Position numbers and translations under genes: made by a program
The notes under the pieces: generated by a model
Database searches by the model: none
What the model was told of the DNA's origin: nothing
What the model saw: the letters and a program-made list of their open reading frames with translations, nothing else
DNA from: a virus
Lineage: Duplodnaviria; Caudoviricetes
Virus record (IMG/VR): IMGVR_UViG_3300002026_000017
Location: 1-64,000 of that record
Length of the DNA stretch: 64,000 nucleotides
Strand: one strand, 5' to 3'
Shown: positions 1-41,621 of the stretch, one piece after another
How the letters are laid out: each line of letters starts with the position of its first letter
How positions within the stretch are numbered: position 1 is the stretch's first letter

Positions 1-531
1 ATGAATATATTCTTTTTAGACACAGACATTAAAAAATCAGCTGAATATCACGTAGATAAACACGTTGTAAAACAAAGACTTGAATTAGCACAAATAGCTT
101 GTGTAGCTCATCATTTAATAGGTACAAATCCAGATGTAATTCCTTATAAAAAAACACACGAAAATCATCCTTCAGCTATTTGGACTAGAGAATCATTATC
201 AAATTACAATTATGTTGTTAATTTAGGTATTGCATTATGTGATGAATTAAAATTTAGATTTAATACACCACATCAAAAATGTTACGAAGTATTTGAATGG
301 TTAAATAATAATCAACCAAATATTGAAGATAAAGGTTTAACACGTCCTAAACTTGCAATCAATTTTGATTTATTAACTATTAACAAAACTTTACAATTAG
401 ATGATGAATCTGATTTTGAATGGGCTGTTAAAAATTATAGAAAATATTATGCTGACGGAAAACAACATTTATATTCTTGGAAAAATAGAACTAAACCTGA
501 ATGGTTAATTGAATTGGAAAACAAAAAATAA
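1..531 (+). CDS. Pyrimidine dimer DNA glycosylase / endonuclease V family protein
   Basis: MNIFFLD..AEYHVDKHVVK, PYKKTHENHPSAIW and YRKYY..K..LYSWKNR..PEW motifs typical of the Pyr_excise family. Confidence 0.85.
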   Translation: MNIFFLDTDIKKSAEYHVDKHVVKQRLELAQIACVAHHLIGTNPDVIPYKKTHENHPSAIWTRESLSNYNYVVNLGIALCDELKFRFNTPHQKCYEVFEWLNNNQPNIEDKGLTRPKLAINFDLLTINKTLQLDDESDFEWAVKNYRKYYADGKQHLYSWKNRTKPEWLIELENKK

Positions 532-4314: not shown

Positions 4315-4824
4315 ATGAAAAAACATAATTTAGGTAGATTATGGTTTCCCAAGTTAATTAATCTTTGGGGATTCATATCAGCATATATAATATTTGATTT
4401 CAGATTAAAAACATCTGATAAATTTTTTGTTTGTGAAATTTTAAGTATTGGTGATGATGCTCGTGTACATACTTCATTATTTAGAATAGATATTGAATGG
4501 AATGAATATTTTGAAATCAATTTTAATTTGTTATATTTATTTCATTTAAGATATGAATATTATAATGAATCAGATATACACGGAAAAATATATAATATTT
4601 TAGAAGAAAGTGTATATTACAAAAATTATTGTAATAGTAAAATGGATTTTAAATGGTTAAAAATTCATCAACATAAATCTATTGGCATAAATAAATATAT
4701 TGAAATTAGATTTGGAGGAGACCTTTCTAAATCTGAATTGGATTCAATGTTAAAAATTTATGGTATTATTAAATTCAAAACAAAACAAATTGATGAAAAT
4801 CATTTTAAAATTTATAATTATTAA
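4315..4824 (+). CDS. Hypothetical protein, paralog of 5118..5453
   Basis: N-terminus MKKHNLGRLWFPKLIN shared with downstream ORF. Confidence 0.65.
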   Translation: MKKHNLGRLWFPKLINLWGFISAYIIFDFRLKTSDKFFVCEILSIGDDARVHTSLFRIDIEWNEYFEINFNLLYLFHLRYEYYNESDIHGKIYNILEESVYYKNYCNSKMDFKWLKIHQHKSIGINKYIEIRFGGDLSKSELDSMLKIYGIIKFKTKQIDENHFKIYNY

Positions 4825-5117: not shown

Positions 5118-5453
5118 ATGAAAAAATTTAATTTAGGGAAATTATGGTTTCCAAAGTTAATTAATATCGTAAAAAATATTCATCAATATATGATTATTGA
5201 ATTTATATTATCACGAGAAGATGAATTTATATCAATAAAATTGTTAGGTATAAATGGTCTTAATAATATGAATCAAGAATTTGGAGAATCATCATTATTT
5301 TCATTTTTAATAAGTTGGAATAGAAATTCAATTTTGATTGAACTGAATTTATTTTTCATATTACATTTGAAATATATTTATGAAAAATACAAAAATAAAT
5401 TTATTTTTGATATTGAAACTGATGCTAAACAGCTATGGAATTTTAAAAAATAA
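5118..5453 (+). CDS. Hypothetical protein, paralog of 4315..4824
   Basis: MKKFNLGKLWFPKLIN N-terminus; start refined to ATG 5118. Confidence 0.65.
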   Translation: MKKFNLGKLWFPKLINIVKNIHQYMIIEFILSREDEFISIKLLGINGLNNMNQEFGESSLFSFLISWNRNSILIELNLFFILHLKYIYEKYKNKFIFDIETDAKQLWNFKK

Positions 5454-6798: not shown

Positions 6799-6820
6799 GG
6801 ATATAAATATTATAACAAAT
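6799..6820 (+). promoter_or_regulatory. Putative phage promoter (GGATA motif)
   Basis: GGATATAAATATTATAACAAAT 13 bp before ATG 6834. Confidence 0.6.
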
Positions 6821-7284: not shown

Positions 7285-7563
7285 ATGAATAAAGAAACAA
7301 AACCAAATTTTAAGGATATGATTAAATCGAATCCAGAAAACTTAAACATTTTTTGGAATGAAAGACGTTTAATTATTTTAGCTTTATTGAAAACAAATTT
7401 TGATTTACAAAAAGCATGTGAATTAAATTTCACAAATTTAGATTTGGAAGTATATAGAAAATTAATTCATAGAAAATATAACATTAAATTAAAGGAACTA
7501 AAAAAATACTTCAAACATGAAAAAATATCAAACACCAAAAACACCAACAATACTACTACATAA
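7285..7563 (+). CDS. Possible Fis-type helix-turn-helix protein
   Basis: ERRLIILALLKTNFDLQKACEL...YRKL..KYNI resembles the Fis/HTH_8 pattern. Confidence 0.45.
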   Translation: MNKETKPNFKDMIKSNPENLNIFWNERRLIILALLKTNFDLQKACELNFTNLDLEVYRKLIHRKYNIKLKELKKYFKHEKISNTKNTNNTTT

Positions 7564-8086
7564 TAGTAATACTTTAGAACAAAAAATAATTTCCAATAAA
7601 AAAATATTTTTATTATTATTTGGAATATTAATTTTTGGTTATTATATTGGATTCTTTTGTGGTTCATTAACAAAACATCCAAATATTATTGAAAAATTAG
7701 TTTATACAGATAAGGTTTTGATTCAAAAATATAACGAACCATTTTCCGAAAATTCTTTAAAATTATTACTTAAAAAATTAAAAGTAAATCATTTAGATAT
7801 TGTTTTAAAACAAGCTAAAATAGAATCAGGTAATTTTTCATCAAAAATATTTATTGAAAATAATAATTTATTTGGAATGAAATTGCCTGGAAATAGAATA
7901 ACAACAGCAACAGGTGAAAATTTAAATCATGCAACTTATGATACTTGGCAAGAATCAGTAATAGATTATGCTATTTGGCAATCAACGTTTTTGAAAAATA
8001 AATCAAGACAAGAATATCTTAATTATTTACATAACAATTATGCCGAAAATAAAAAATATGTTTCATTGATAAATAAAATGAAATAA
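7517..8086 (+). CDS. Membrane-anchored glucosaminidase (GH73-like) cell-wall hydrolase
   Basis: N-terminal hydrophobic helix; QAKIESG, NNLFGMK, YDTWQESVIDY and YAENKKY motifs. Confidence 0.8.
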   Translation: MKKYQTPKTPTILLHNSNTLEQKIISNKKIFLLLFGILIFGYYIGFFCGSLTKHPNIIEKLVYTDKVLIQKYNEPFSENSLKLLLKKLKVNHLDIVLKQAKIESGNFSSKIFIENNNLFGMKLPGNRITTATGENLNHATYDTWQESVIDYAIWQSTFLKNKSRQEYLNYLHNNYAENKKYVSLINKMK

Positions 8087-8679: not shown

Positions 8680-9273
8680 ATGGAAGATATAAACAAACCA
8701 GCAACAACAAAACAAACTTTCGCGTTAAAATTATCAACCGGTATTGATTATCGGGACCAAAATTTAAGTTTTGAGGAAGCATCAAAAATGATTCAGGAAG
8801 CAAATAAAAAATCTGGTTATCAATCTAAAAAAAAATTTTCTAAAAAAGAAAATATTCCAACAATACTTCAATACTTAGCTTCAAATGAATGTGTTGAAGC
8901 TTTGAAAAAAACTATTTGTAATGAAATTGAAATTAAATCAATTTTAAGTCAACATAAAGAAATTGAAGGAGCTAAAAAATATGTTTTTCTTGGTACTGGA
9001 TGTGGATTCCCAATTATTAATTGGGATAAAAAAAATTCAAGAGCAACCAGAACAATTGAAAAAGCAAAAGAAATTCAGAAAGATATTGATAATTTAGTAT
9101 GTCAATCATTTGACAAAGAAGTTGTTGATTATTTGAAATTTTTAGGTAATTCTATTGAAGCTATTATGACTCAGAATATGAATTATAAATCAACATACGA
9201 CCAATTAATTGTTGATTATTTAGAAAAATATTATCAAATCGAAGGCGTTTATGTTGAAACACGTCTTGATTGA
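8680..9273 (+). CDS. Hypothetical protein
   Basis: 197-aa ORF between promoter motif and terminator. Confidence 0.75.
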   Translation: MEDINKPATTKQTFALKLSTGIDYRDQNLSFEEASKMIQEANKKSGYQSKKKFSKKENIPTILQYLASNECVEALKKTICNEIEIKSILSQHKEIEGAKKYVFLGTGCGFPIINWDKKNSRATRTIEKAKEIQKDIDNLVCQSFDKEVVDYLKFLGNSIEAIMTQNMNYKSTYDQLIVDYLEKYYQIEGVYVETRLD

Positions 9274-9302: not shown

Positions 9303-9332
9303 GAAAATAGCTTGAAATTTCAAGCTATTTTC
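9303..9332 (+). terminator. Perfect 30-bp palindrome, likely terminator
   Basis: GAAAATAGCTTGAAA|TTTCAAGCTATTTTC, 30 bp after stop. Confidence 0.7.
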
Positions 9333-9475
9333 TATTATATTTATTAATACACACCAGAATTTTAATTATATAAATTGAATATATCTGAAAAATCCATATA
9401 TCTTGATAATTGTATTGATAAATTGATATATCTAAATATAATCATAATTTTCTGGTGTGTATTGTTTATATGTAA

Positions 9476-9512
9476 AATTTAAGCTCGATATTATTAATAC
9501 CGAGCTTAAATT
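9476..9512 (-). terminator. Hairpin terminator for the minus-strand small ORF
   Basis: AATTTAAGCTCG-13 nt-CGAGCTTAAATT, 15 bp downstream of stop at 9528. Confidence 0.6.
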
Positions 9513-9527
9513 GTTTTTAAATTGTTT

Positions 9528-9683
9528 TTAATTTGTAAAATAAATTAATCCATAAACATCTAACAATATAAATATTGTTAATAATATCAATAGTGTTATT
9601 ATTAGATAAATAACACCTTCATAATGTTTACCAAATAATTTTGTTAAAAATTTAATGATAGATTTTTTTATATTATTTTGCAT
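9528..9683 (-). CDS. Small membrane protein, 51 aa (not in ORF track)
   Basis: MQNNIKKSIIKFLTKLFGKHYEGVIYLIITLLILLTIFILLDVYGLIYFTN; ATTATCATG leader like neighbours; own GGATA motif and terminator. Confidence 0.7.
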   Translation of the reverse strand: MQNNIKKSIIKFLTKLFGKHYEGVIYLIITLLILLTIFILLDVYGLIYFTN

Positions 9684-9695
9684 GATAATGTTTTT

Positions 9696-9720
9696 TATTT
9701 GTTATATTATATATATCCGA
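9696..9720 (-). promoter_or_regulatory. Putative phage promoter (GGATA motif), minus strand
   Basis: TCGGATATATATAATATAACAAATA reading toward ATG 9683. Confidence 0.6.
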
Positions 9721-10109
9721 TTATTTATATATTTATAAGTGAATTGGAATTTATTTTTTAATTAATTTCTGATACACACCAGTTATTATATGTTATATAT
9801 TGTTTTAAAAATTATTAGATTGATATTTGTTAAGATAACTATTAATAATTCATATAATAACTGGTATGTATTATTATATAATATGTTTGAAAACGAAAAT
9901 TTTATCTATATTATATGCTATATGTATACACACTGGAATATAACTATTTACAAATAATACACACCAGTAAAAATATATCTATTATTTCAATGTATCAATT
10001 TATCTTGATATATACCAATTCAATTGATTATGTTAATAGATTAAACCGGTGTGTATATGATTAACAGGTGTGTATGAATGTTATTATTATACTATTATAT
10101 TTATGATAT

Positions 10110-10284
10110 ACCTATATTATTATGATTAACTGGATATATATAATATAAATGATTGTTTGATTGTTTAATAAGTATCAAGAAAAAAATAATTTTAAAATAA
10201 TTTCAAAAATGCTTATATCTTTTAAATTAATCGGATATAAATAATATAACAAAAAAATTCACAAATTAAAATTTTATTATCATG
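10110..10284 (+). repeat. Promoter/leader block copy 1 (near-identical to 11291..11463)
   Basis: ~175-bp direct repeat with two GGATAT motifs, ending at the ATG. Confidence 0.9.
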
Positions 10285-10914
10285 GTAAAAGATGCAAAAA
10301 AAATCGTTGGTGCTGAATTAGAAAATGCTAATCAAGATGTACCGTTAACAAAAAATGTTAACAAAAATGTTCCACAATTTTCTGACCGTGAATGGTTAGA
10401 AAAAAATGACCCAATTGATTTTTGTGTTGGTGAAAATACAAGTTCAAAATTTGATGCTGGTCGTGAAGTTGCAATTCAAAATGGTTTACCAAAAGTTGTT
10501 GCAATCGAAATGAATGGTAAAACAATTAATCCTTTATTAATCTTGCTTGGTAAATGGTGGGAAGTAAAACCTGCTCGTGCATCAATCAAAAAAATGATTG
10601 ATGCTGAAGCTGAAGCAAAAGGAATCGATAAAGATGTTTATTTGCAAGTTAATCTTGCAACCGAGGTTGATGAAATTTCAGAAATGCAATCTGCTATTGA
10701 CCGTATTAGATATGCTAAAACGTACTTTAAACCACGTAAACCATTAAGCGATAAAGTTATTACAAAACTTGTTAAAATCGAAGGTGTTACTTATGTTGTT
10801 CCAGTACAAGCGTTTGAAACTTTAAAAGCTGAACTTGGTACCGACCGCGAAGCTTTAATCAAAGCAACAATTGAAATTTCAAAAGTACAAAATCTTGAAG
10901 TTGAAAGTTTGTAA
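10282..10914 (+). CDS. Hypothetical protein, likely highly expressed
   Basis: 210 aa; GCT/GTT/CGT/ATC-rich codon use like the capsid gene. Confidence 0.85.
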   Translation: MVKDAKKIVGAELENANQDVPLTKNVNKNVPQFSDREWLEKNDPIDFCVGENTSSKFDAGREVAIQNGLPKVVAIEMNGKTINPLLILLGKWWEVKPARASIKKMIDAEAEAKGIDKDVYLQVNLATEVDEISEMQSAIDRIRYAKTYFKPRKPLSDKVITKLVKIEGVTYVVPVQAFETLKAELGTDREALIKATIEISKVQNLEVESL

Positions 10915-11270
10915 AAATCAAACCTTGATGATTATTTTCATCAAGGTTTTTTCTTTATTATATATCATTACACACCAGTAAATTATTAATATATTTAATA
11001 TTGATAGTGGTTTGTCTTGTTATTAACTTAATGGTTATATATAACCATTATTTACTGGTGTGTAATGATAATATATAAGATATATGGTTATTTCGTAATT
11101 TTGTCTATATTATTTGATAAAAACTATACACACATGTAAATAATGATTGATTAACTATACACACCTGTAAATATTGTCTATAATCTTGATATATGAAATT
11201 AACAGGTGGTTTGTCTTGTTGGATTGATTATATAAATAGATTAAACCGGTGTGTATCATTAAATATAAGA
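10912..11270 (+). repeat. Terminator plus two inverted-repeat elements, copy 1 (repeated at 11992..12348)
   Basis: Direct repeat begins at the TAA; offset ~1080 bp; ~50-bp variable segment between the two elements. Confidence 0.9.
10920..10949 (+). terminator. Intrinsic terminator
   Basis: AAACCTTGATGA-TTATTT-TCATCAAGGTTT followed by T-rich tract. Confidence 0.85.
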
Positions 11271-11290
11271 TTAAAAATATTTTTGGAATT

Positions 11291-11463
11291 ACCTATATTA
11301 TTATGATTAACTGGATATATATAATATAAATGATTGTTTGATTGTTTAATAAGTATCAAGAAAAAATAATTTTAAAATAATTTCAAAAATGCTTATAACT
11401 TTTAAATTAATTGGATATAAATAATATAACAAAAAATTCACAAATTAAAATTTTATTATCATG
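11291..11463 (+). repeat. Promoter/leader block copy 2
   Basis: Near-identical to 10110..10284, ending at the ATG. Confidence 0.9.
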
Positions 11464-11994
11464 ACAAATCAAGATTCAAACGTTGCAGAAGTTATCGGAA
11501 ATGTAGAAGTTGTTAAATTTGTTAAAGTTGCGAAAGTTGCAAAAACAAGAAAATCAAAACAAGAAGTTTTGGTTGTCGAAGAGGTTATTGAAACAATTGA
11601 AACTACAAAAGTTAAGGTTGATAAAAATAAAGAATTATTTGCAACACTATCAAAATTAACAAATCTTTCAGTTGCTCAATTAAAAACTTTTGCTATATTA
11701 AATTTAGCAAAAAGAAAAGTCAAAATTAATTTGACAAAATTTTTAACTCAAATGATTTTGAATGTTGCTAGTTCAAAATTAGAAATTAAAGAAGTTGAAA
11801 GTAAAATCCTAGAAGATTTTCTAACAAAAATTTCTGAAAATTCAAATCTAGAAGTTGAACAAATCAAAGATTTTCTAATTGTTGATTTAGCAAAATCCAA
11901 TAAAAAAGTTTTATTAAAAGATTTCATGTTGGAAATGTTTTTCAATGTTGTTACAAATAAAAATAACATCAAAGAAACAATCGCAAAATTCTAA
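11461..11994 (+). CDS. Hypothetical protein with internal ~38-aa duplication
   Basis: TNLSVAQLKTFAILNLAKRKVKINLTKFLTQMILNV versus SNLEVEQIKDFLIVDLAKSNKKVLLKDFMLEMFFNV. Confidence 0.8.
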   Translation: MTNQDSNVAEVIGNVEVVKFVKVAKVAKTRKSKQEVLVVEEVIETIETTKVKVDKNKELFATLSKLTNLSVAQLKTFAILNLAKRKVKINLTKFLTQMILNVASSKLEIKEVESKILEDFLTKISENSNLEVEQIKDFLIVDLAKSNKKVLLKDFMLEMFFNVVTNKNNIKETIAKF

Positions 11995-12348
11995 AAATCA
12001 AACCTTGATGAAATTAATCATCAAGGTTTTTTCTTTATTATATATCATTACACACCAGTAAATTATTAATATACTTAATATTGATAGTGGTTTGTCTTGT
12101 TATTAATTTAATGGTTGTATATAACCATTATTTACAGGTGTGTATTGATAACTATTGAATATATGATTATATCTAAATAATCCATATAAATATGTCCAAA
12201 ACAATACACACCTGTAAATAATGATTGATTAACTATACACACCTGTAAATATTGTCTATAATCTTGATATATGAAATTAACAAGTGGTTTGTCTTGTTGG
12301 ATTGATTATATAAATAGATTAAACTGGTGTGTATCATTAAATCTAAGA
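11992..12348 (+). repeat. Terminator plus two inverted-repeat elements, copy 2
   Basis: Near-identical to 10912..11270. Confidence 0.9.
12000..12029 (+). terminator. Intrinsic terminator
   Basis: Same stem as 10920..10949, different loop (AATTAA). Confidence 0.85.
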
Positions 12349-12494
12349 AAAAGATATGTTTTTATATTGCCTATAATTATATGATTAATCGGATATAAAT
12401 AATATATACAAATAAATAATTTTATTTTTGTTCATAATATAATAAATAACAAACAATAAACAAATAAAAAAAATTAACGTTAAATAATTGAATT

Positions 12495-12758
12495 ATGATG
12501 TATGCAATAGAAAAAATACTTTCAGATACATTTATGGAATCAACAACATATATATATTTATATGAAAGTAAGGAATTAAGAGATGATGTATTCAATGAAC
12601 TTTTAGATAATACTAAAAATTTAGAATATACTGAAAATTTAACTTTTTCAGATGATAATATAAAATATTATCATGGTGGTGATAGAGTTGTAGAAATTTC
12701 AAAATGTGAATTAAAAATTTCCAAAAAAGATGATATTGATAAAGAAGTTTTTAAGTAA
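12495..12758 (+). CDS. Hypothetical protein
   Basis: 87 aa; GGATATAAAT motif at 12391; hairpin 12763-12791 after it. Confidence 0.7.
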   Translation: MMYAIEKILSDTFMESTTYIYLYESKELRDDVFNELLDNTKNLEYTENLTFSDDNIKYYHGGDRVVEISKCELKISKKDDIDKEVFK

Positions 12759-12762
12759 AAAT

Positions 12763-12791
12763 ATAATAACTTGAATAATTCAGGTTATTAT
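12763..12791 (+). terminator. Hairpin terminator
   Basis: ATAATAACTTGAA / TTCAGGTTATTAT stem with one G-U pair. Confidence 0.55.
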
Positions 12792-12995
12792 TACAATCAT
12801 TAACAATACACACCAGTAAATTAACCTCATATTTCAATATATAAATTTATCAGGTCAATCATCAAGATATTAAATATTTGGAAATATAAATTCATGTGTG
12901 TATTAATAATATATATTGGAATAATTGAAATTTCAACTTATAAATAATATAATTTTCGGATATAATTATTATAATCAATAAAAAACATTAAAAAC

Positions 12996-15833: not shown

Positions 15834-18053
15834 TTAAAATTCACCAAATATTGAAGCTATTTCATCATCTAACGGGTTTGTGTCTGAAATTTGAAAAGCA
15901 TCAGATAATTTATTTCCATTAAGCAATTGTCTATTCATTACATTTTGATTGTCAGAATAAATATCTTTTAATGTATCTCTATCAAATTTAACACCTAATT
16001 CTTCACGAGAATTAGATAATGTTTTTAATAAATCTGGGTTATTTAATCTCCAATTACCAGCTTTGTTTGATATTTTTGTTTTATTACCATATTCATCTAA
16101 ATTAATAGTTTGTGTTTCAGTATTTTCTGAATCATTTTTCTTGATATTTATGAAATATTCGAAGCCAGCTTTTAATTCAGGTTTAATATCGAGAATATTT
16201 TTTAATTTTTTAAGTATCACATCTATTTTAGATGAAACAGCTGATTGTGAATAAACACCTCTTTCATTTTTAATTTCAATACCATCTGATTTAACCATTT
16301 CGGACCAAATTTCTGCTATTTCATTTTGTGTGTAAAATTTATCTGTATTTTCAACAAGTTCACCATCTTTATTTTTATAAAAAGATTTTTCGATTCTTGT
16401 TTCAAGACCATAATTTAAAACAAATATTTTTCTTTCGTATTTATCAAATATCCTTTTATTTGTAATTTTCTCTATACCAGTTTTTTTATCAATATCTGTT
16501 TGAAATAAATTTAATATATCTGAAATAGATTTTAACATTTTTTCATAAGCAATTTTACCTTCTAATAACTCATCAGCATTAATATCTTTTGATGATGATG
16601 AATTTTCAAAAATATCATCTGTTCCTTCTTCTTCTCCTCCAACCATACCACTAAATTCAGTAGCATGCATTGTTTTATTGATTTTTTTAATTCCAGATTT
16701 TGAATTATCATCATCAAATGATTCTTTGCCTAAAATTAATTCCAAAACTATTGATGGGTCTATATTTTCATATTGTGGATTATCTTTAATAAAGTTGTTA
16801 ATTTTCTTTTTATTAAAATGATTTATTGTAGCTATTGAGGAACCAGAAACTTCTCCTTGATAACCAATATTTAATAATTCTCTATCAATTGAACCAGATA
16901 TATAAATACTTGAAAATCCTTTAAAAGATTGAGCATGTTCACCTTTTAATTTTATTTGTGATGTTGTCCATTTATTAATAGCAACTGATAAACCTTCAAG
17001 CCCTGCTGAAACAGCATCATCTAATTTATTTAGTGCATTATATCTTGTACATGCTTTACGAGCTAAAATTTTAACATAATTAACATTTGATAATGCTAAT
17101 AATTCTTTAGAAATTTTTAAATCTTCAGGTTTTTCTAAATCAAAACCACTATCAAAAAGTATATCTGTTAATTTAACATTGCCAGATAATTCATCTTTTT
17201 TATATGATATTTCGGCTTTTATTGTATCAAGTTTATTTTTAATTTCCCAAGTTAATGGTAATGTGTTTTTTAAAGCTTTTGATATTTGGTTTAAATTAGC
17301 ATCTAAAACTTCTTGAACAGTCCAATCAATTATATCTGCTATTCTACCACATAAATTATGATATTCTTGTTCAACTTCAGTAATTTTTGTTATTTCCTTG
17401 TTTTCTCCACTATTAAATTCATCAAATTCAATAACATCATCAGTTGTTGAATTAAATTTATTATTTAATTGTATTCTTTCTCGATATTCTTTAACAATTT
17501 TAATCCACCAAGAAGGGGTTGCTTCATTTAATTCTATTTGGTATTTTTTTCTAAGCTCCGTAAGATTTTTAATTTCAGCAGAATTTTTAATCTTATCTAA
17601 ATTATCTAGTCTTTCTGTATTTGTATTTCCAGATTCACCATGTCTAACAATTTTTTTAAGTTCTAATAAATTACTATTAAGATTAAAAACAATCTGTTTT
17701 GATTTTTCGTAATTTTCTTTACTACCATTTTTCTTATAATTATCCATTTCATTTTCTAAAATTGAAATTTGATTTGTAATAATTTGATATTGTGGTAATT
17801 TTTTAATGTAAAATTTTAATCCTTCGGTTACATCATATCTAAGTTTATCAACATGAGATTCTCCAACTATATCTCTTTTCATTGCAACATCAAGCATTTT
17901 ATCTCTATCAATTTTTGCTTGGATTTCATCATCAGATAATACATCTCTCTTTTTTCTATTAAATGGAGTTTTTACTGCTGAAACTCCATTAATTTGATTT
18001 AACTCTTCTGATGTTGAGTTAATTAACTCATCAAATGTGATACTGTCTTTCAT
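15834..18053 (-). CDS. Large divergent sigma70-family-like protein
   Basis: Region-2-like DDAVSAGLEGLSVAINKW...SFKGFSSIYISGSIDRELL; region-4-like KYERKIFVLNYGL...TQNEIAE...SQSAVSSKIDVILKKLK. Confidence 0.65.
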   Translation of the reverse strand: MKDSITFDELINSTSEELNQINGVSAVKTPFNRKKRDVLSDDEIQAKIDRDKMLDVAMKRDIVGESHVDKLRYDVTEGLKFYIKKLPQYQIITNQISILENEMDNYKKNGSKENYEKSKQIVFNLNSNLLELKKIVRHGESGNTNTERLDNLDKIKNSAEIKNLTELRKKYQIELNEATPSWWIKIVKEYRERIQLNNKFNSTTDDVIEFDEFNSGENKEITKITEVEQEYHNLCGRIADIIDWTVQEVLDANLNQISKALKNTLPLTWEIKNKLDTIKAEISYKKDELSGNVKLTDILFDSGFDLEKPEDLKISKELLALSNVNYVKILARKACTRYNALNKLDDAVSAGLEGLSVAINKWTTSQIKLKGEHAQSFKGFSSIYISGSIDRELLNIGYQGEVSGSSIATINHFNKKKINNFIKDNPQYENIDPSIVLELILGKESFDDDNSKSGIKKINKTMHATEFSGMVGGEEEGTDDIFENSSSSKDINADELLEGKIAYEKMLKSISDILNLFQTDIDKKTGIEKITNKRIFDKYERKIFVLNYGLETRIEKSFYKNKDGELVENTDKFYTQNEIAEIWSEMVKSDGIEIKNERGVYSQSAVSSKIDVILKKLKNILDIKPELKAGFEYFINIKKNDSENTETQTINLDEYGNKTKISNKAGNWRLNNPDLLKTLSNSREELGVKFDRDTLKDIYSDNQNVMNRQLLNGNKLSDAFQISDTNPLDDEIASIFGEF

Positions 18054-41583: not shown

Positions 41584-41621
41584 AGGAATTTTGGATATAA
41601 ATATTTATATCCAAAATTCCT
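41584..41621. promoter_or_regulatory. Perfect 38-bp palindrome carrying GGATATAAAT on both strands
   Basis: AGGAATTTTGGATATAAAT|ATTTATATCCAAAATTCCT. Confidence 0.6.

Follow-up and report, generated by a model that had tools for sequence, protein, structure and literature searches.

The promoter-early stem-loops (PeSLs) of T4-type phages, each of which is a sigma70-like early promoter with a GC-rich stem-loop alone, are repeated between the small genes of a hyperplastic genome region (Arbiol et al. 2010, PMC2839356; Comeau et al. 2014, PMC4122927). In Escherichia coli, BIME-1 or RIP units pair a REP sequence with an inverted REP across a long linker, often containing a site for IHF (PMC3333891). 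Here we describe an array of eight inverted-repeat elements that has features of both. It lies in a window of 64,000 nucleotides, the first 64 kb of the 83,644-bp IMG/VR virus record IMGVR_UViG_3300002026_000017 (hereafter G000). Comparison of 53 elements from eight phage loci, ranging from 22% to 49% G+C, shows that they are real and make up a conserved family of cis-elements not described before, the function of which we infer.

The pattern TACACACCWG has 14 exact matches in the window, against 0.01 expected, and all of them fall in 9348-12816. It is absent from the remainder of the record, and the reversed-pattern control gave none. The original prediction, made from the letters of the window alone, had placed the motif only in this 3.6-kb stretch, and the scan of the full record bears that out. 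Degenerate partner arms emerge at one or two mismatches to the pattern. All eight elements then proposed are upheld by measurement, with the spans given for them (114, 98, 98, 96, 98, 96, 98 and 96 bp; E1 to E8 in Table 1), and are accompanied by lone half-sites, three lying 31 bp upstream of an element (E3, E5 and E7) and another following E3 on the minus strand. The 15-mer GTGGTTTGTCTTGTT, described as shared by four elements, does occur in exactly four copies, at 11007, 11206, 12087 and 12284. It is common to these elements because whole intergenic blocks have been duplicated recently: 10909-11071 is 93% identical to 11989-12151, and 11120-11328 is 89% identical to 12198-12406.

The record is a virus fragment with about 22% G+C and a CheckV completeness estimate of 36%. 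The window has genes for a tail sheath, a portal and a split DNA polymerase. Its portal shares 31-32% identity with the portals of Sphingomonas phage PAU and Tenacibaculum phage PTm1; these two phages and MA9V-1 are the closest cultured phages, with portal identities of 25-32%. On these sequence grounds G000 is an uncultured T4-like jumbo myovirus, and its host is probably a member of the Bacteroidota.

A blastn search of 50,697 phage records found no match for the array region. One relative, G001, was reached via a 210-residue protein encoded in the array and has an array of like elements with ACG[TC]ACCAG ends, while a third phage, G002, was found with a generalised site pattern. In both, the sites are restricted to one array of 3-4.6 kb and reversed-pattern controls gave none. 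The contigs L144, L145, L147 and L148, fetched via homologues of the 210-residue protein, every one carry the array. The relative L146, at 49% G+C, keeps the array plan: its end sites read GCGCACCGG, spans are 92-95 bp, lone sites lie 30-33 bp upstream of the promoter-side (B) elements, the central box is TGCCAAGGCA-like and the promoter motif is the same. Beyond this plan, the L146 array shows no further similarity or complementarity. This motif scan of relatives, suggested as a check alongside the original prediction, supplies the 53 elements from eight loci. In the cultured phages PAU, PTm1 and MA9V-1, site clustering does not exceed that of the reversed-pattern control, and the 210-residue protein has no homologue there.

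Two wider scans yielded candidates that we rejected. An exact-motif scan of IMG/VR (TACACACC...GGTGTGTA) gave 88 single matches, about the level of chance, and its sole double match, L021 (IMGVR_UViG_3300017694_000013), is an unrelated GC-rich contig. At 940-1260, immediately downstream from a primase/helicase-like open reading frame, this contig has clustered GGGTGTGTACA / TGTACACACCC repeats with the look of an iteron origin. The scan of bacterial and archaeal species genomes produced two matches, which we attribute to chance because both lack the full site.

Over the 53 elements the end site, of 9-15 bp, reads ACRYACCWG and is mostly followed by TAAAT, the two sites of an element forming an inverted pair. 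All but one of the 53 measure 91-97 bp across their two end sites (mode, 93-94 bp), and the end-site centres are 84-85 bp apart, equal to 8.0 turns of B-DNA. Of the 18 gaps between a lone site and the B element that follows it, about 16 measure 22 bp, or 31 bp (three turns) from start to start. The interiors contain a roughly palindromic central box, YCWWGR (TRYCWWGRYA in extended form), 37 times, compared with 6.1 +/- 2.4 in shuffled interiors. Its placement is restricted, with 21 boxes centred exactly 32 bp (three turns) and six centred 42 bp from the nearer end site. Genome-wide, the hexamer is not enriched. The box core, CTTG or CAAG, is positioned toward either end of the element and, since the box is found in either orientation and at either side, the elements occur in both polarities. 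When the orthologous spacers between the 210-residue gene and the next gene are aligned for G000, L144 and L148, the conserved islands are the end sites, boxes and promoter motifs only.

In L148, the elements at 1721, 2401, 3643 and 4672 consistently have left arms reading (A/G)CG(C/T)ACC and right arms reading ACACACC. From this consistent difference, the binding factor seems to tolerate R/Y changes at positions 3-4 of the end site, and the pairing of the arms is not maintained.

The array comprises the last five transcription units of a plus-strand block, just ahead of the convergent switch to a minus-strand block. The order at a junction is intrinsic terminator, terminator-side (A) element, lone site with B element, CYTATAWT box, GGATATAWATAWTATAAS, a leader of 30-45 nt and ATG. 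Six intrinsic terminators were found where 0.3 would be expected. The promoter motif, CYTATAWT-N14-GGATATAWATAWTATAAS, has its box exactly 22 bp upstream of GGATATAWATAWTATAAS and is kept from 22% to 49% G+C. Over the eight loci, an end site lies 35-72 bp upstream of 28 of the 29 promoter motifs, mostly at 55-59 bp and with a mode of 58 bp. In G000 the motif is confined to the part of the plus-strand block between 6.8 and 13 kb, save for one palindrome at 41.6 kb.

The latter, a perfect palindrome (TTTTGGATATAAATATTTATATCCAAAA, window 41585-41620), lies between two minus-strand genes and has the promoter core on both strands. The core of the motif, TATAAATA, is T4-late-like; in L146 the motif is found at 7861, 9181, 9884 and 10483. 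Inward-facing sigma70-like promoters on the arms were also considered and rejected, a consensus scan counting 62 against 49.6 +/- 7.1 in shuffles, and none in the GC-rich relative.

The inverted ends raise the question of whether the elements act as folded single strands. Arm complementarity is 87-100% at the nine core positions and reaches the level of the AT-rich background by about position 15 (53 elements, eight phages). At position 9 of the end site, A-A, T-T or other non-pairing combinations are frequent, and arms shuffled within phages match nearly as well as true pairs (p = 0.04-0.07). The covariation of arm extensions that had been claimed therefore stands for a few elements (E2 and E4) but not in general. 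Minimum free energies of full elements are -11 to -33 kcal/mol, and interiors fold no better than shuffles, with z-scores of about -3 to +1. The fold and covariation check with RNAalifold, also suggested beforehand, returned a 10-bp terminal stem only, with a covariation term of -0.59. Variants of the left and right arms do not change in concert. Covariance models from Rfam gave no match over the elements at E <= 1. With complementarity decaying after about position 15, unstructured interiors and no compensatory changes, attC-like and RNA readings are not supported.

How, then, does the array compare with described systems? Its likeness to PeSLs lies in the terminator-plus-promoter blocks repeated beside small genes, orphans for the most part, in a plastic stretch of a T4-like genome, in near-identical block copies (89-93%) that flank a gene, and in gene swaps between conserved blocks. 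The array also shows the composite of stem-loop terminator and promoter by which PeSLs are recognised, in repeated copies that separate small genes within a hyperplastic T4-like region. PeSLs, however, contain no module of ~96 bp with end sites and box, and the promoter motif in the array (GGATATAWATAWTATAAS with CYTATAWT) appears to be phage-specific and does not read TTGACA/TATAAT.

By architecture, BIME-1 is the nearest analogue, and looped operator pairs with a central bending protein come close too. Like our elements, BIME-1 units are extragenic, ~100 bp long and located at the ends of transcription units, with two inverted repeats around an architectural-protein site; among other roles, they have been proposed to bind proteins (IHF, gyrase, Pol I) and to act as topological insulators. 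Yet each REP is a hairpin palindrome of 20-40 nt with a 5' GTAG, is the target of a Y1 transposase and belongs to hundreds of dispersed copies, whereas the end sites here are asymmetric 9-15-mers with no internal palindrome or GTAG, in a single array, and no Y1 was found in the three partial genomes searched. In looped operators such as the gal repressosome (GalR-HU), NagC-CAP and lac O1-O3, the last at 92 bp, two sites ~90-115 bp apart likewise lie on one helix face beside promoters, with a bending protein between them. There, a dimer binds each operator, itself a full palindrome, and the pair is single; here, the sites are asymmetric half-sites, and 5-10 copies of the module occur, with further sites outside them. 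Searching the literature for the motif strings produced unrelated primer matches only and, Rfam being equally silent, the earlier remark that the elements match no described family holds.

We hold, with moderate confidence, that the elements are DNA-level nucleoprotein modules which control or insulate the transcription units of the array. The negative fold results, the position of the elements from terminator to promoter and the phased spacings favour recognition of duplex DNA by proteins, and we infer that end sites and box are both recognised in this form. Protein-binding sites were among the options originally listed, and the helically phased spacing, the positioned box, conservation from 22% to 49% G+C and the lone half-sites support that option. 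A regulatory role would fit the position of the elements, with end sites upstream of nearly every promoter motif and confirmed terminators. In the mechanism we envisage, a sequence-specific protein, encoded by phage or host, would occupy the end sites and a second factor, dimeric and bending, the central box. Jointly, these would close a micro-loop of ~85 bp, or a wrap, on one helix face. The resulting complex might control, in timing or in strength, the strong promoters that surround the conserved 210-residue gene, or insulate transcription units from one another. In broader terms, the elements would belong with the protein-bound regulatory or architectural sites of phage cassette regions.

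Several observations weigh against such a role. No element accompanies the promoters at 6799 and 8643, which are of the same class, and the module is therefore not required for promoter function as such. The terminator-side A elements are not adjacent to promoters. Gaps between end site and promoter fall at 35, 45 and 55-59 bp, and their helical periodicity is not significant when duplicates are removed. The AlphaFold model of the 210-residue protein is confident (pLDDT 84) and shows no DNA-binding or other known fold, there being no meaningful match by Foldseek against the PDB and BFVD, by VIA-align wide or in the ESM Atlas. Finally, ordered and phased site arrays around a conserved gene are typical of replication origins as well.

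An origin is the foremost of the alternatives, though unlikely. The end sites would then be iteron-like sites for a phage initiator, possibly the 210-residue protein, which would autoregulate its own gene via the inverted pairs, and a bending factor would bind the central box, for which oriC and lambda ori provide the model. The box is indeed like that of an architectural factor, the site arrays are ordered and phased, and in every locus they surround one conserved gene, that of the 210-residue protein, with nested site pairs directly upstream of it. Phased repeated sites clustered around a small conserved gene recall iteron-type origins, among them T4 oriE, which combines small rep genes (repEA/repEB) with iterons; iteron plasmids, moreover, autorepress through inverted half-iterons. 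However, iterons are direct repeats ~22 bp apart at one locus, whereas the array consists of inverted pairs 85 bp apart, and its module recurs before four or five different genes and after terminators rather than occurring once. Neither a winged helix nor any other initiator fold appears in the 210-residue model. The array is located at the convergent switch between strands, the maximum that cumulative GC skew reaches there merely tracks transcription, and no distinct DNA-unwinding element was noticed, although no search was aimed at one.

Second among the alternatives, and again improbable, is site-specific recombination, in which cassettes would be exchanged, inverted or excised by a recombinase acting on the end sites with an accessory factor on the box. 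Arms with a central accessory site are the three-part layout typical of recombination sites. The elements bracket every transcription unit, minus-strand mini-cassettes included, and the array genes other than that for the 210-residue protein vary between subclades. Furthermore, the 87-residue gene of G000 (12495-12758) is replaced by an unrelated 97-residue gene in L144 (9979-10272) and L148 (4854-5147), the swap being placed between conserved element-plus-promoter modules in the fashion of PeSL-mediated shuffling, which forms a precedent (PMC2839356). Against this, homologous recombination between duplicated blocks would suffice for gene swaps, cassette order is stable across the G000/L144/L148 subclade, and two elements per junction together with lone sites are unexpected for simple recombination sites. 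The search for recombinases, HUH nucleases and transposases proposed with the original prediction was run on three partial genomes (~240 kb), with PF00589 among the profiles, and found no tyrosine or serine recombinase, Y1 HUH or DDE_3 transposase; for PF00589 the absence is weak, given that these genomes are 30-36% complete.

We think it quite improbable that the elements are recombination sites by which T4-like jumbo phages exchange cassettes in an integron-like manner not yet described or, alternatively, enhancer-like fixed loading sites for clamp-activated transcription of the T4 type. In the integron-like version the end sites may bind a candidate recombinase or nuclease and the central box an accessory factor. 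The conserved inverted ends, variable centre, size and cassette-boundary location are all reminiscent of attC. Instead of RYYYAAC / GTTRRRY cores, however, the 53 elements end in ACRYACCWG ... CWGGTRYGT, and only 10-15 bp are complementary in place of an extended imperfect hairpin. In addition, integron cassettes are promoterless and carry one site apiece, with an IntI integrase and attI close by, whereas each gene of the array has its own promoter motif and terminator, often with two elements per junction, and no integrase (PF00589) was found in the three incomplete genomes.

Very improbable, in our judgement, is a unit that folds as single-stranded DNA or RNA, be it a hairpin (attC-like, terminator or processing) or a small RNA. 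The inverted end sites would allow a stem of 10-15 bp, and some arm differences are transitions, giving G-U pairs on one strand. Nevertheless, pairing ends by about 15 bp and, in the tests described above, neither the interiors nor the frequently non-pairing position 9 behave as a fold would need. A box in either orientation and at either side, both polarities relative to transcription, and a location between terminators and promoters argue in the same direction and leave the attC-like, folded option of the original prediction unsupported.

Least probable of all is a spread of selfish miniature inverted repeats, MITE-like (Correia, RUP or ERIC) or REP/BIME-like, into the intergenic regions. 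Of these, the MITE analogy was drawn originally. The reading is suggested by the ~100-bp length, terminal inverted repeats, intergenic location and, in G000, TA at both ends, but disfavoured by the flanks of relatives (AA...TT or TA...TT, hence part of the palindrome and not a target-site duplication), by the same syntenic positions in phages with proteins merely 40-60% identical, by one array per genome (G000, G001 and G002), by box positions fixed despite diverged interiors, and by the absence of transposases (DDE_3, Y1) from the three partial genomes and of the elements from the bacterial genome scan.

The genes and other features of the array are collected in Table 1. For the 210-residue protein there are 57 homologues, all metagenomic and none in cultured phages. 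Pfam and PHROGs reveal no DNA-binding domain among 30 neighbouring proteins, and the MotA C-terminal domain was searched for and not found. Two wastewater runs that carry an RNA-Seq label, but may be of DNA, yielded contigs spanning the 210-residue gene of a relative, from 28 nt ahead of the ATG as far as the terminator; since neither the ends nor the abundance of transcripts can be read from contigs, these were not used as evidence. Two further contigs stop inside the array, L145 (187 kb) at 8699 and L149 (61 kb) just past a 230-residue gene, in each case right after the homologue of the 210-residue gene; these contig ends probably arise because the repeated modules break assemblies.

Beyond the array, a neighbouring 739-residue gene (15834-18053, minus strand) is kept in G001 and G002 at 34-35% identity, and PDB sequence searches with the conserved neighbours (739, 165 and 119 residues) returned nothing. 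For the 739-residue protein, Pfam at E <= 0.1 likewise yielded no match to a sigma factor. The plus-strand block does not consist solely of orphan genes, since it also encodes a glucosaminidase-domain protein (7517-8086; Pfam E = 9e-15) and, at window 1-531, has a weak match to pyrimidine-dimer glycosylase. The adjacent genes 4315-4824 and 5118-5453 are paralogues, with 41% identity over 88 residues.

Table 1. Elements, lone end sites, promoter motifs, terminators and genes of the array, in window coordinates.
Feature	Position	Strand	Remarks
Intrinsic terminator of 197-residue gene	9303-9332	+	
E1	9348-9461		114 bp, atypically long; TCTTGA box 9401-9406; past the 197-residue gene terminator, ahead of the terminator of the minus-strand mini-gene
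51-residue mini-gene	9528-9683	-	Between E1 and E2; conserved in L144 and L148
Promoter motif GGATATATATAATATAAC	9701-9718	-	Of the 51-residue minus-strand gene
E2	9773-9870		98 bp; left end site 55 bp upstream of minus-strand promoter at 9718; degenerate right arm TACATACCAG
Lone end site, degenerate TACACACTGG	9927-9936	+	31 bp upstream of E3 left site
E3	9958-10055		98 bp; B type (promoter side); TCTTGA box 10003-10008
Lone end site after E3	10065-10074	-	58 bp upstream of promoter motif 10132
Promoter motif P' GGATATATATAATATAAA	10132-10149	+	CCTATAT box 22 bp upstream
Promoter motif P GGATATAAATAATATAAC	10233-10250	+	31 nt ahead of 210-residue gene ATG
210-residue protein gene	10282-10914	+	Sole array gene kept at all eight loci
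Bidirectional intrinsic terminator	10920-10949		After 210-residue gene
E4	10969-11064		96 bp; A type (terminator side); TGTCTTG box ~11013-11019
Lone end site, degenerate TACACACATG	11127-11136	+	31 bp upstream of E5
E5	11158-11255		98 bp; B type; right site 58 bp upstream of promoter motif 11313
Promoter motif P'	11313-11330	+	Upstream of 177-residue gene
Promoter motif P	11413-11430	+	Upstream of 177-residue gene
177-residue gene	11461-11994	+	Flanked by duplicated intergenic blocks; conserved in L144 and L148
Bidirectional intrinsic terminator	12000-12029		After 177-residue gene
E6	12049-12144		96 bp; A type; duplicate of E4 block, 93% identical
Lone end site	12205-12214	+	31 bp upstream of E7
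E7	12236-12333		98 bp; B type; right site 58 bp upstream of promoter motif 12391
Promoter motif	12391-12408	+	Upstream of 87-residue gene
E8	12807-12902		96 bp; degenerate right arm TACACACATG; TCAAGA box 12862-12867; end 55 bp upstream of promoter motif 12958
Promoter motif	12958-12975	+	Upstream of 86-residue gene

The outcome defines a testable cis-element, made up of end site, three or five turns, central box and end site, with outer sites at three turns. The element and its promoter motif belong to an uncultured clade of jumbo T4-like phages, probably infecting Bacteroidota, that has no known regulatory biology. The plan is kept across 22% to 49% G+C and therefore offers clean material for DNA pull-downs of binding proteins. 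The elements could reveal how such phages organise strongly expressed gene cassettes, and whether PeSL-type shuffling of cassettes relies on protein-bound sites dedicated to it.

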